A stretch of 64,000 nucleotides of DNA from Promethearchaeati archaeon (GCA_013166775.1 JABLTJ010000002.1:96001-160000); one strand, 5' to 3'; positions 5,393 to 19,086 are shown, counted from the first letter of the stretch. Numbers and translations are program-made. Notes: generated by a model from the sequence alone, not told the origin.

Positions 5393-6622
5393 ATGAGCGT
5401 TGACAGAGAAGGTTTAGAATCCAAAGTAGCCATATTGGGACTCTCACAATCTGGAAAAACTTCCATCAGACAAGTAATTTTTGAAGGATTTGCTCCAGAA
5501 TCCACATCGCAGAATCCAGCAACAGTCAGAATTAACAGGAAGTTGTTCAATCTCGCAGGAAGTTCCATAAACTTATTTGATGTAGGAGGGCAGAGCGCTT
5601 ATCTAAATGAAGTCTTTCAACAGTATCAAGAAAGAACTTTTTCTGATGTGAAAGCAGTTATCTTTGTTGTAGATGTATCTGATGCTGCTAACATAATGAG
5701 ATCTAAATATTATTTTGATCTAACAGTTGAGAATGTCAAAGAGATAAGCAGAACTGCTAAGATATATGTCTTTGCTCACAAAATGGATGTTGTACCTGTC
5801 AATAAAAGACAAGCAGTACTTCAATCCATTAAAGATATCTTTGAAATCGATAATATGGAAAATGCAGAGATTTATGGTACCTCAATCTTTGAAGATACGC
5901 TCTGGGATGCGATGCAGAAGATTCTTGCTTTGGTTTATCCTAAGGATGATAGCAAAACATTAGAAATCAAAGATGTTGTAGGGGCATATGATTTATCATT
6001 TTTAGCTGTATCAACAACTCATGGTCTTGTCCTTTATTCCCAACCAGAAGCTCTTGCAGGAGTAAATTATGAGAGGTTGAGGAATGAGTTGTCCAACACA
6101 TTTTTCCCTGGAATGGTAATGGATTATGCAATTTTCTCATTGGGAAACTTTTGTGTTTTTATGAGGGAAATTGATAATGATTTAGTACTTACTTCAGTTT
6201 TTGAACACGGTCCTGATCTGGGTGATACTCGTAGTAAATTCCTAGAACTTAGTGGAAAGATAATGCAAATCTTCCAACCTGATGAATTAATAGGACAAGC
6301 AAAGGCAAAGATGAAATCAACTCTATCAAAATACTTAGAAAATAACAAAGTAAGAGAGATAGCTACTCTTGAACGAAGGTTCGATGTTAAAGTGAATGTC
6401 AAGTGTGATATTTGTGGAAAACAAGTTCAAAAATCGATTCTAGATGTAGCTGTAGAAAATTCTGAAAAACTTGAAAGAGGAATAAAAATTACTGCAGGAT
6501 TTGGAGTAACAACAATTGAGATGTATCCTATACATGAATGTATAGAAGGAATGAGAGAAATTCCAGTTTTCCTAGATAGTGATCTTGAATATAGAAGATA
6601 TGATAACAGTAGACCAATCTGA
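5393..6622 (+). CDS. Rag/Gtr-like small GTPase (RagA-like) with roadblock/longin-like domain and C-terminal Zn-binding domain
   Basis: G1 GLSQSGKTS, G3 DVGGQ, G4 HKMD, G5 TSIF; then an alpha/beta domain and CDICG...HEC. Confidence 0.85.
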   Translation: MSVDREGLESKVAILGLSQSGKTSIRQVIFEGFAPESTSQNPATVRINRKLFNLAGSSINLFDVGGQSAYLNEVFQQYQERTFSDVKAVIFVVDVSDAANIMRSKYYFDLTVENVKEISRTAKIYVFAHKMDVVPVNKRQAVLQSIKDIFEIDNMENAEIYGTSIFEDTLWDAMQKILALVYPKDDSKTLEIKDVVGAYDLSFLAVSTTHGLVLYSQPEALAGVNYERLRNELSNTFFPGMVMDYAIFSLGNFCVFMREIDNDLVLTSVFEHGPDLGDTRSKFLELSGKIMQIFQPDELIGQAKAKMKSTLSKYLENNKVREIATLERRFDVKVNVKCDICGKQVQKSILDVAVENSEKLERGIKITAGFGVTTIEMYPIHECIEGMREIPVFLDSDLEYRRYDNSRPI

Positions 6623-8470
6623 TTATTCTTCTTGTTCTTCTGTTTCTTTAATTTCTTTATTATTTGTCGCTCCTTTTGTTAAGAAATCTGACATACTTTT
6701 GATTGCTTCCTTTGAAAAAATGCCTTCAGGAACTTCATCTTTTGTTTTCATTAAGAAACTAGCAAAACCTTTGATATCATTTGCGTCGAATTCGATTTGA
6801 GCAGAAGCTTCTTCAGATACTGCTGCGATTTCTTGTGCTGGTTCCTCTTCTGAAGTAACTTCCATTTCTCCATTTACAAATGTTCCAGTTTCTTGTATCA
6901 GCTCTTCAGTTACTTCTGATTTTCCTTCTAAAACAGTTTCCACTTCACCTGGATCAGGAATTTCTAGAATCTCACTCAGACCAGCAGCTAGTTCTCCTTT
7001 AAGCTCAGAATCTACTGGTTTATCAGATGCAATCTTTGGAACTGAATCAGGAACTGCAACTGGCTCTATTACTTTTGGAGGAGCAGGTGTTTCTACTTCT
7101 TTAGCAGGTTCAGAAAAAGGTTCTGGTTTGACTTCAACTTGAATTTCAGGAATAATCTCAGGAGCTTCTTCAGTGGAAGTTTCTTCAACAAACTCTAGAG
7201 AAGTTTCAGCCATAATTTCTACAGGAGTCTCCTCAAGGGGTATGTCTTCTGTTGATTCTACTTGTGCTACTTCTATTGGAATTACTGCAGGAGTTGGTGC
7301 TTCTGTAGCAACTTCAGCTAATGTCTCAACAGCAGCTTCAACAGGTGCTGCAACTGCAGGAGGTTTCTCTATTTTTGTCTCAATTTCCCCTGTTGATTGA
7401 GCAAATTTGAATATTAGTTCATAGAGAATTTCCTTTTTCTGATCTGTAATCTCCGAAAATGATGTGACTAGAAGAAAATTGGTTGCTAGATTAAAGATCA
7501 TTCCGTGTACAGTTCGATCTGCAGAAGAAATAATACTTCCAGTAGAATCAATATCATCTCCTAAATCCTTTATCTGATTTTTAAGGTGATGTAGTCCAAT
7601 TAGATAGTCCATTGATTTTTCGATGTTCACATTAGACTGCGAGGAAGCTCCGATAATTGGAGAATAGGTTGCTTTATCAATTAAAACCATTTCGACAATG
7701 TCATATTCAGTAAGATCAAACTCTAAATCTAATTTGCCAAAAGTTGGAAGAATAGGTTCAGGTTCTGGATTCAAGAACTCTCTTAACTGTTTTATTCTAG
7801 GATCTTCTTGATGTTCCATAACATAGCTTTGGAATTCATTGCTTTGTTCAACTGCTTCACCAACATTTGATACTAACTCGAATCTTCTAGTGTCAATACC
7901 AGATTCTTTCATAACGGTGAACATTAAATCTTTGAGACTTTCATAATAGTAAATACTAGTATTCTCAAATTCTATCTCGAAACGAGGATCATCGAACAGT
8001 TCTCGAATATGTTGATGAATTACTACCATTCTTTCAGGAGTAACTAAATCCACCTTATGACAGAGAACGGTAATATGGCCTTCAGGATTCTCTTTGACAT
8101 ATTGACGAATAGTAAAACTAAATCTTCTTTCTGATTCTTCAAAAAGTTCAGGTTGAGTGACATCAACAACCCATACTAGAAGTTTCACATTGGAAAAAAC
8201 AAGATGTCTAAAATGCGTAACAGCTTCATTCCAGTAGCTCTCTTGTCCTCCAGAATCGATAACTAAACTCTTTTTTTCCTCATCAATAAAGTGACGTTGA
8301 TAATGAACTGTAGCCATATAATCTTCTGCATCAGCAGGTTTTTTATCGAAAAAGACAACATCTTTTATTGCTGTCTTCCCTGCTGACTGTAAACCCATGA
8401 GAAGGATTTTATCCTCTACAGCAGGTGCATCTGATTTATCTTTGTATAATTCATCGAATAAGTAGGACAC
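6623..8470 (-). CDS. Rag/Gtr-like small GTPase (RagC-like) with roadblock/longin-like domain and acidic disordered tail
   Basis: KILLMGLQSAGKT..VVF, DSGGQ, HKVD, TSIY; Glu/Pro/Ala-rich C-terminal region. Confidence 0.85.
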   Translation of the reverse strand: MSYLFDELYKDKSDAPAVEDKILLMGLQSAGKTAIKDVVFFDKKPADAEDYMATVHYQRHFIDEEKKSLVIDSGGQESYWNEAVTHFRHLVFSNVKLLVWVVDVTQPELFEESERRFSFTIRQYVKENPEGHITVLCHKVDLVTPERMVVIHQHIRELFDDPRFEIEFENTSIYYYESLKDLMFTVMKESGIDTRRFELVSNVGEAVEQSNEFQSYVMEHQEDPRIKQLREFLNPEPEPILPTFGKLDLEFDLTEYDIVEMVLIDKATYSPIIGASSQSNVNIEKSMDYLIGLHHLKNQIKDLGDDIDSTGSIISSADRTVHGMIFNLATNFLLVTSFSEITDQKKEILYELIFKFAQSTGEIETKIEKPPAVAAPVEAAVETLAEVATEAPTPAVIPIEVAQVESTEDIPLEETPVEIMAETSLEFVEETSTEEAPEIIPEIQVEVKPEPFSEPAKEVETPAPPKVIEPVAVPDSVPKIASDKPVDSELKGELAAGLSEILEIPDPGEVETVLEGKSEVTEELIQETGTFVNGEMEVTSEEEPAQEIAAVSEEASAQIEFDANDIKGFASFLMKTKDEVPEGIFSKEAIKSMSDFLTKGATNNKEIKETEEQEE

Positions 8471-8578
8471 GATTACGACCCCTAGTACTGTCTAATATAA
8501 AGATGTCTGTGTAATACTAAAGCAAAATTTTACATATCAATATATCGATACTGACTAATGAAAAAGAGGAGAAAAGGA

Positions 8579-18133: not shown

Positions 18134-18309
18134 TTAGACCATCAAATCTTTCTAGTTTTAATCTTATACTTTGAAGCTTACAGTTGAAGAAACTTCCAAT
18201 TGATTTCTAATAAAGTTTCTTTCACATGCAATATTACCACTTATTATAAATAATGCATTAGTTTTAAGCTTCTCTTCTACTATTTGTGTAATATGAATAT
18301 AATCGTGAT

Positions 18310-19086
18310 TTAGATAAATGAATCTTCATTTTCTTGATTGATTATTTTTTGCTCAATCTTAGCAACTTGATCTCTGCTGTTAATATAATCAATAAGCTCA
18401 AACGAATGAAAGAAAGAATTCAAAACGGTATCTTGAAGGTTATCTAATCCTTCTCTTGTAGTGTTTGAAATCTTAACTGAATGAATTCTATCTGAACCTA
18501 TTTTAATCCCTATTCTATCTTCAATACTTTTGAGAAGATATCTTTTACCTTCTTCAATCATACTATCATTTGTAGTAACAAATAATCCGTGATCTAAATG
18601 AGTTCCAAGAAGAATAATGCTAGTAAGATCTGAAATTAGTTCATGTTCGATAGCTCTATTTAACCAATATTCTAAATTCTGAAAAGATTTGACATCTGCT
18701 AAATTATATGTCATAATAAGAATAACCACATCATTAATGCTTCTCACATTACGATACATATCTACAGCATCCTCAAATGCTAATCCTTCCCCTATTTCAG
18801 ATCTACCCTTTTGTCCAGGCAGAATAAACAATTGAGAGCTAATCGTAACTTTATATTTCTCAATGTTTGAATACAATATGAAGTAATCAAATTCCAGATT
18901 AACTGATTTGGATAGGTTCGTACAATCAGTTGTGTCGTAAAAATGCCCCTTCTTGTATTGAGCTAAATTCAAGGCAGTATGAGTTTTACCTGTATGACCA
19001 TCACCAATGAAGACTACTCCTCCTGTGCAAGTGATATCTGTTTCTCTACAGATTAAGAGTCTATTCTTTGGTGAATCAAACCTCAT
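18310..19086 (-). CDS. Divergent Ras-superfamily (Rab/Roc-like) small GTPase
   Basis: G1 GDGHTGKT, altered G3 LPGQ, SFQNLEYWL helix, G4 GTHLD, G5 ISNTTREG. Confidence 0.75.
   Translation of the reverse strand: MRFDSPKNRLLICRETDITCTGGVVFIGDGHTGKTHTALNLAQYKKGHFYDTTDCTNLSKSVNLEFDYFILYSNIEKYKVTISSQLFILPGQKGRSEIGEGLAFEDAVDMYRNVRSINDVVILIMTYNLADVKSFQNLEYWLNRAIEHELISDLTSIILLGTHLDHGLFVTTNDSMIEEGKRYLLKSIEDRIGIKIGSDRIHSVKISNTTREGLDNLQDTVLNSFFHSFELIDYINSRDQVAKIEQKIINQENEDSFI

Follow-up and report, generated by a model that had tools for sequence, protein, structure and literature searches.

The folliculin complex FLCN-FNIP2 (Lst7-Lst4 in yeast) is a GTPase-activating protein (GAP) for RagC/D (Gtr2). 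Other GAPs with longin domains are C9orf72-SMCR8, which acts on Arf and Rab GTPases, and GATOR1 with its NPRL2-NPRL3 pair, which acts on RagA/B; both are soluble, consist of several subunits and have DENN or further domains in addition. The residue R147 of SMCR8 is located in the betaL4-betaL5 loop and is the counterpart of R164 of FLCN (bioRxiv 10.1101/2020.04.16.045708). A GP motif that closes the loop leading into strand 2, beside the arginine finger, was reported to be specific to FLCN, NPRL2, SMCR8, C9orf72 and one class of Asgard longins (PMC12290439), and the loop 10-16 of FLCN (Phe10, His14, Pro16) makes specific contacts with RagC (PMC9473554). The core idea of FLCN-type longins in Asgard archaea is already published: longins with FLCN architecture, NPRL2-like longins and longin-Rag fusions were described in 2020/21 (bioRxiv 10.1101/2020.10.19.343400), longins of the FLCN/SMCR8 type with the GP motif and the arginine finger in 2025 (PMC12290439), and Rag-like GTPases have also been reported (PMC10933270). 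The 2025 survey left open whether the partner of the Asgard GP/Arg longins is an Arf-related or a Rag/Gtr GTPase (PMC12290439). Here we describe a locus of Promethearchaeati archaeon, a member of the Heimdall group, contained in a 64,000-nt window (GCA_013166775.1 JABLTJ010000002.1:96001-160000), in which a probable longin of this type forms the cytoplasmic tail of two giant surface proteins encoded next to Rag-type GTPases. All positions are counted from the start of the window.

In FLCN-FNIP2 the longin belongs to a soluble complex, whereas here a surface protein of ~1,590 aa holds it at the membrane as a covalently linked tail. A FNIP-like partner devoid of the arginine was not identified in this system; two arginine-bearing paralogues or a homodimer would serve instead. 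The likeness to the Folliculin family PF11704 is below threshold, there is no Ragulator, lysosome or TOR kinase context, and the GAP role is predicted. The substrate specificity of C9orf72-SMCR8 or GATOR1 is not transferable. Plexins, which are single-pass receptors of animals, contain a Rap-GAP domain of their own on the cytoplasmic side, and the activity of this domain depends on the dimerisation of the receptor. They follow the same logic of a large ectodomain, one helix and a cytoplasmic GAP, but with an unrelated RasGAP-like fold and lineage, and the likeness is an analogy alone. The Asgard longins of the FLCN/SMCR8 type are alike in motifs, structural arrangement and a notable presence in Heimdallarchaeia. 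The text that describes them mentions neither gene neighbourhoods nor a form that is anchored in the membrane or fused to a receptor, whereas here the longin is a receptor tail in a Rag cassette; the sequences may overlap (Traffic 2025, PMC12290439). The Asgard longin-GTPase fusions also combine a GP/Arg longin with a Rag-, Ras/Rab- or Arf-like G domain (bioRxiv 10.1101/2020.10.19.343400; PMC10933270). These are soluble proteins of 236-476 aa with both parts in cis; in the present locus, by contrast, a membrane protein carries the longin and each GTPase has its own gene. In the literature that was searched, we found no report of giant single-pass surface proteins that have a longin for a cytoplasmic tail, nor of a conserved cassette that unites a longin gene with those of a Rag-like pair and of a third GTPase.

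The locus has five genes within the positions 5393-19086. The genes P0001 (8579..13354, minus strand, 1591 aa) and P0002 (13376..18133, minus strand, 1585 aa) encode the giant single-pass surface proteins and are tandem paralogues separated by 21 bp. Both translations consist of an N-terminal hydrophobic segment, an ectodomain of ~1335-1340 aa, one strong membrane helix and a tail of ~185 aa. In P0001, hydropathy windows were found at the residues 8-30 and 1377-1405; the latter is the membrane helix (9140..9226, minus strand) and is followed by KVTRPK. The membrane helix of P0002 spans the residues 1375-1403 (13925-14011, minus strand), and the basic patch KVTR(P/R)K stands right after the helix in both proteins. 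Each ectodomain has 35 N-x-S/T sequons, and the tails hold 3 and 2, respectively. With a signal or anchor segment, one helix, a positive-inside flank and sequons in the ectodomain, both proteins are predicted to have a type I single-pass topology, and this architecture suggests that they act as receptors.

The two proteins were compared in blocks of 100 alignment columns. The identity is ~20% in the columns 1-300, 53-61% in the columns 301-800 and 30-41% in the columns 801-1400, and reaches 48% in the membrane-proximal block and 74% in the tail. Pfam recognised only weak Ig-like matches outside the membrane (Big_13, which includes the weak match of P0001, and PKD). For the variable N-terminal ~300 aa, a feature search of the ESM Atlas returned matches below 0.9 in unnamed clusters and no informative relatives.

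The tail of P0001 comprises the residues 1406-1591 plus the stop codon (8579..9139, minus strand), and that of P0002 is encoded at 13376-13924 (minus strand). An exhaustive phmmer search with the tail against 1.84 billion representatives yielded 49 relatives. The full-length relatives have 900-2,350 aa and carry the tail domain C-terminally, and the shorter matches resemble fragments. When short stand-alone tails (102-347 aa) were searched for, mostly partial records or short contigs were found, called hypothetical protein where they had a name; none of these matches was a convincing soluble close homologue, and soluble relatives were seen at a distance alone. In the public records, the tail proteins that bear a name are all called 'hypothetical protein', and no Pfam domain is annotated for any of them.

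An alignment of 30 tails, termed A1, was used for an AlphaFold model of the tail. The model had a predicted local distance difference test (pLDDT) value of 91.3 and a predicted template modelling (pTM) score of 0.87, with the topology beta-beta-alpha-beta-beta-beta-alpha-alpha and two short helices ahead of it. In a Foldseek search against the PDB the Lokiarchaeal longin 8yqg ranked first, followed by entries of FLCN/FNIP2, Lst4, GATOR1 and C9orf72/SMCR8. The shape search of the ESM Atlas was headed by archaeal longin-GTPase fusions and an archaeal cluster partly annotated as PF11704, and next came clusters of C9orf72, 'UDENN FLCN/SMCR8-type', SMCR8-like, Avl9 and NPR2 proteins; the feature search with the tail gave a weak lead to NPR2 at 0.85. 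Sub-threshold matches to one shared region of the PF11704 profile were present in 16 of the 30 tails, and a Lokiarchaeia-type relative reached by the tail profile (E 1.7e-12) cleared the PF11704 cut-off with 25.5 bits. A search of the whole genome with PF11704 did not recover the tails and gave a single weak match (E 0.14) that is unrelated; this is probably due to a loose first-pass filter, and the search is uninformative. Taken together, the models and searches support a tail fold that is closest to the longins of FLCN, FNIP, SMCR8 and C9orf72, with a weak but consistent link in sequence.

The GP motif of P0001 (G1443-P1444; 9023..9028, minus strand) is at the start of longin strand 2, and the candidate arginine finger R1517 lies within ARGG in the beta4-beta5 loop (codon CGT, 8804..8806, minus strand). 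In P0002 the GP motif is encoded at 13808-13813 and the candidate arginine finger R1515 at 13589..13591 (codon CGA), both on the minus strand. The invariant residues of A1 include F39, Q41, G44, P47, R118, G119, G120, E122 and N123, and these were kept by all 55 distinct tails of the fetched loci. The Gly of the GP motif is invariant, whereas the Pro is found in 50 of the 55 tails and is an Ala in the other 5. An invariant Phe is placed five residues before this Gly (F39-x4-G44-P45). R118, which equals R1517 and R1515, is invariant in the 55 tails and also in every sequence of a wide alignment of 22 sequences, which includes soluble relatives from other Asgard families with 15-22% identity to the P0001 tail. 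The sole invariant columns of the wide alignment are the Gly of GP and the Arg and Gly of ARG. In the tail model, G44-P45 opens strand 2 (E44-52) and R118 is in the loop between the strands 4 and 5 (E103-113 and E121-131). FLCN presumably has a glycine at position 15, which would give a Phe-x4-Gly-Pro spacing equal to that of F39-x4-G44-P45 in the tail. The topology and the motif spacing thus support that the GP and Arg positions correspond to those of the published GAP longins.

The surface-protein genes are co-oriented with P0003 (6623..8470, minus strand, 615 aa), which encodes a Rag/Gtr-type GTPase and follows P0001 after 108 bp. A second Rag/Gtr-type GTPase is encoded by P0004 (5393..6622, plus strand, 409 aa), which is convergent to P0003 with 0 bp between the stop codons. 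On the other side, P0005 (18310..19086, minus strand, 258 aa) encodes a divergent Ras-superfamily GTPase and is the upstream member of the cassette, 176 bp from P0002. The open reading frames agree exactly with the description in an earlier analysis of the bare DNA, here called the sequence-only reading. It had described two single-pass proteins of ~1590 aa with both motifs in their cytoplasmic tails, the two arginine codons, and a co-oriented arrangement upstream of a Rag-like GTPase with two more GTPases flanking. All of this was confirmed, and Pfam assigned two of the GTPases to Gtr1_RagA and one to Ras.

The linkage of tail and GTPase genes extends beyond the window. The genome of 3.85 Mb has four tail-bearing genes, two of which are outside the window; one of these is directly followed by a 199-aa Gtr1_RagA gene and the other is at a contig end. 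Since three of the 6 strong Gtr1_RagA matches of the genome (E<1e-15) adjoin tail genes, Rag-like neighbours are more frequent than expected by chance. We surveyed 40 neighbourhoods of related genomes, which are kin and not independent. In 16 loci from two families, including Candidatus Heimdallarchaeum aukensis and relatives of the AB_125 lineage, the cassette consists of a P0005-type gene upstream of one to three receptor genes, the P0003 orthologue that follows them, and a convergent P0004-type gene. A second receptor class is flanked by Gtr1_RagA proteins of 180-320 aa. Taking the families f1 (Heimdallarchaeota/Heimdallarchaeum), f7 and f32 together, 20 of the 25 loci have a Rag-like neighbour. 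In the family f5, which includes Hodarchaeota and Hodarchaeum mangrovi and has up to eight tail-profile matches per genome, four loci combine a tail gene with a short (~300 aa) and a long (~650-740 aa) Rag-like pair in varying orientations. Although the genomes are kin, the preservation of the linkage despite rearrangement and in different paralogue classes speaks for a functional coupling. The interpretation of the sequence-only reading is supported in part: the data agree with a tail that resembles the FLCN/SMCR8 longins and with a linkage to Rag-type GTPases in several families, and the arginine is conserved in orthologues and in distant GTPase-fused relatives, whereas a GAP activity, a relay of a signal through the membrane and a role as forerunner of the eukaryotic switch are predictions.

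Tandem triplets of tail genes encoding ~2,200-2,900, 1,540 and 1,000 aa were also observed in f5, for example in the loci L037 (G074:C52), L067, L068 and L070. No Pfam family was found for the small open reading frames that flank these triplets (88, 134 and 179 aa).

The tail profile also reached soluble relatives in other Asgard families with E values of 1e-9 to 1e-16. In the families f15, f16, f20 and f28 (L076-L087), an N-terminal GP/Arg longin is fused to other domains of soluble proteins. The fused G domains are Ras/Rab-like (L077, L082, L083, L084), Gtr1/RagA-like (L078, L079) or Arf-like (L086), and further fusions contain a weak DENN and Folliculin region (L076) or a winged-helix domain (L080). 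The G-domain fusions are possibly GAP-GTPase units that act in cis. As the same type of longin is fused to G domains, they provide an independent link between this longin and small GTPases.

A possible contact was modelled with two copies of the tail, the G domain of P0003 (alignment A2), GTP and Mg. The docking score was 0.77, and the best of three controls reached 0.14. In the calibration of this score, 58 of 80 solved complexes and 2 of 110 mismatched pairs attained the mark; the calibration is rough here because own alignments and a riding ligand were used. The runs shared at least 93% of the contacts, and the pLDDT of the partners was at least 86. The first tail copy contributes the residues 39-45 with the Phe...GP loop and 118-121 with the Arg loop, and the second copy contributes helix 1. 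The contacted residues of P0003 are 28-29 in the P-loop, 50-61 in switch I and 76-79 in switch II, including the Gln.

On balance, we lean towards the reading that the tail is a membrane-tethered longin GAP, which docks as a dimer on the adjacent Rag-type GTPases and contributes the invariant arginine. P0001 and P0002 would be type I surface glycoproteins that cross the membrane once, with an Ig-like stalk that is conserved and a distal tip that varies. A tail dimer, either of one protein or of P0001 and P0002, would dock on the G domain of the adjacent Rag-type GTPases and place the GP loop and the invariant Arg loop against the P-loop and the switches I and II. Most likely, it would speed up the hydrolysis of GTP as an arginine-finger GAP. 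The Rag-like pair, of which the short member has a putative roadblock domain after the G domain and the long member ends in an acidic tail, would thereby be switched off at the membrane. The direct basis is the domain identity, the conservation of the motifs, the gene linkage and the longin-GTPase fusion elsewhere, from which we infer the binding, the GAP chemistry, the control by the ectodomain and the downstream output. With considerably more confidence, we expect that the tail regulates or binds the neighbouring GTPases in some way.

Several observations weigh against a GAP of the FLCN type. The P0001 tail matched PF11704 with 20.0 bits, under the cut-off of 23.3 bits, and the P0002 tail had no match. 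Single-sequence and profile searches of the PDB sequences with the tail never reached FLCN, and SMCR8 appeared in the profile search at E 0.66, in the right region (58-205), and was lost when the C-terminal helices were trimmed. The equivalence of the arginine with R164 of FLCN, as named in the sequence-only reading, is therefore topological and holds at the level of the beta4-beta5 loop and the motif spacing. FLCN and SMCR8 carry a DENN domain, whereas the tail protein ends 3-9 residues past the last longin helix, and the Lst7-like minimal form is the sole FLCN architecture that applies. Eukaryotic longin GAPs are asymmetric heterodimers with one arginine, and here both paralogues bear it. 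The closest solved structure, the Lokiarchaeal Roadblock-Longin protein 8yqg (tail-profile E 3e-13), retains the GP motif, but the Ala-Arg-Gly of the tails is replaced by Glu-Pro-Glu. The fold alone does not imply GAP activity, as this protein shows, and the Arg motif marks a subset. The contact of the Arg and GP loops with the P-loop and switches in the model supports a likeness and not a binding; it agrees with a docking of these loops at the nucleotide pocket of P0003, the sole GTPase modelled, but the pass may reflect solved complexes learnt by the modelling program, as those of FLCN-RagC, GATOR1-RagA and SMCR8-ARF1 are available. Most of the fetched f5 tail loci are without an adjacent GTPase. 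Finally, neither Pfam nor the ESM Atlas search recognised a ligand-binding or sensor domain in the ectodomain.

8yqg itself may be a natural member of the group without the arginine, perhaps of the type of the FNIP-like partner. A literature search for a paper on the PDB entries 8yqg, 8zla and 8yl2 (Loki Rag and Roadblock-Longin proteins) found none.

A different function is conceivable, in which the tail is a membrane anchor or platform, or a guanine nucleotide exchange factor (GEF), for the Rag-like GTPases and the arginine serves binding or structure. The tail would then recruit the GTPases to the membrane like Ragulator, or open the nucleotide pocket like the longins of TRAPP, Mon1-Ccz1 and DENN proteins. 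Longin/roadblock dimers mostly act as platforms or GEFs (PMC3747258, PMC10933270), the switches I and II touched in the docking model are bound by GEFs and platforms too, the permanent membrane tether suits anchoring, and 8yqg as the nearest solved relative has no arginine. Weighed against the invariant arginine and GP motif of the tails, we consider this function rather unlikely.

In an alternative, inside-out order, the GTPases would control the placement, clustering or turnover of the surface proteins, or the protrusions on which these are borne, in a manner similar to the control of polarity by MglA/MglB, with the tail as a handle and no cue sensed. Some f5 tails end open frames of 8,800-10,400 aa, and their occurrence on very diverse giant proteins would fit a general sorting or anchoring handle; the ectodomains resemble Ig-repeat proteins of the adhesin or S-layer type and have no known sensor domain. 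However, the invariant catalytic-type arginine and the GP motif would be left unexplained. This order is compatible with GAP activity, and the direction of signalling cannot be read from a sequence. We judge it improbable to a similar degree as the anchor or GEF function, and it does not exclude the others. That the tail is a generic longin/roadblock-like dimerisation module and the GTPases are unrelated neighbours is very improbable: Asgard genomes are rich in GTPase and longin genes (23 regions score for Gtr1_RagA in this one), the GTPases of MK-D1 are generally outside longin operons (PMC10933270) and many f5 copies have no GTPase neighbour, but half of the 6 strong Rag-like genes adjoin tail genes, the linkage survives rearrangement in at least four families with different Rag paralogues, and the same longin type is covalently joined to G domains elsewhere.

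The Pfam family Gtr1_RagA (PF04670) matched P0004 with E 1.5e-34 and P0003 with E 1.8e-25, at a cut-off of 22 bits. Among the PDB sequence matches, Gtr1/RagA ranked first and RagC/RagD/Gtr2 came later, with Asgard Rag-like GTPases in between for P0004 alone; all 21 matches of P0003 were Rag/Gtr proteins. For the Rag-like pair, the scores for RagA/Gtr1 vs RagC/Gtr2 were 81 vs 42 and 54 vs 37 bits. A split into a RagA-like and a RagC-like member, suggested by the HKMD/HKVD motifs, finds no support in the overall similarity, by which P0003 and P0004 are both nearer to RagA/Gtr1. The one line of support for a possible heterodimer, which in Rag/Gtr GTPases joins an A/B-type and a C/D-type subunit, is that a short and a long Rag-like gene recur together.

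P0004 consists of a G domain, a putative roadblock-like C-terminal domain and a C-terminal extension (residues ~338-409, 6404-6619). In the extension, C338-x2-C341 ... H381-x-C383 is invariant in 13 orthologues and looks like a small zinc-binding module, in a part where the model confidence is low. To our knowledge, eukaryotic Rags have no such C-terminal module. P0003 has a G domain (1-200), a conserved middle domain (~200-375) and, at the residues ~380-615 (6623-7330), an acidic low-complexity tail of ~235 aa rich in Pro, Glu, Val and Ala. For the middle domain, the comparison to the P0004 profile with hhalign gave a probability of 0.1 and the PDB search was empty, which leaves a roadblock fold unproven. 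The orthologues of P0003 have 490-686 aa and the f5 counterparts 650-740 aa. P0005 matched Pfam Ras with E 2.5e-5, barely above the cut-off, and its motifs GxxxxGKT (P-loop), PGQ and THxD were kept in 12 orthologues.

Directly upstream of the cassette and on the same strand is a gene for a P-type cation ATPase (19191-22160, minus strand; E1-E2 ATPase, Cation_ATPase_N/C), which is not kept beside the cassette in other genomes. The regions 22338-23802 and 24071-26596 contain a nucleotidyltransferase-like gene, a KaiC-like ATPase gene and then an open reading frame of 841 aa without a Pfam family. In the same genome, a heliorhodopsin gene (Pfam E 5.8e-87; L005 8234-9070, contig C62) is two genes away from the third tail-bearing gene.

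Asgard archaea were reported to have no homologue of the phosphatidylinositol 3-kinase catalytic domain of mTOR (bioRxiv 10.1101/2020.10.19.343400). As a speculative and rather doubtful extension of the GAP reading, Heimdallarchaeia could have a transmembrane small-GTPase pathway in which a ligand or contact pairs the ectodomains, the two tails form the GAP and a RagA/RagC-like heterodimer is switched at the cell membrane. Such a pathway would predate lysosomes and TOR and be a possible source of the soluble GAPs FLCN, GATOR1 and C9orf72-SMCR8. The receptor-fused form was seen in families of the Heimdallarchaeia type alone, and it may be a derived fusion rather than a forerunner.

In conclusion, the locus offers an answer to the question of the partner by its gene order, since Rag-type GTPases adjoin the longin across several Heimdallarchaeia families. 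A catalytic-type longin as the tail of a giant surface glycoprotein is an architecture unknown in eukaryotes, where the GAPs are soluble complexes. If the GAP activity holds true, the tail and its neighbour would become the first GAP and GTPase of Asgard archaea to be assigned to each other, and would be evidence that the regulation of Rag GTPases by longin GAPs is older than its lysosome-TORC1 context. The locus is a directly testable candidate for a prokaryotic, membrane-wired folliculin-Rag switch.

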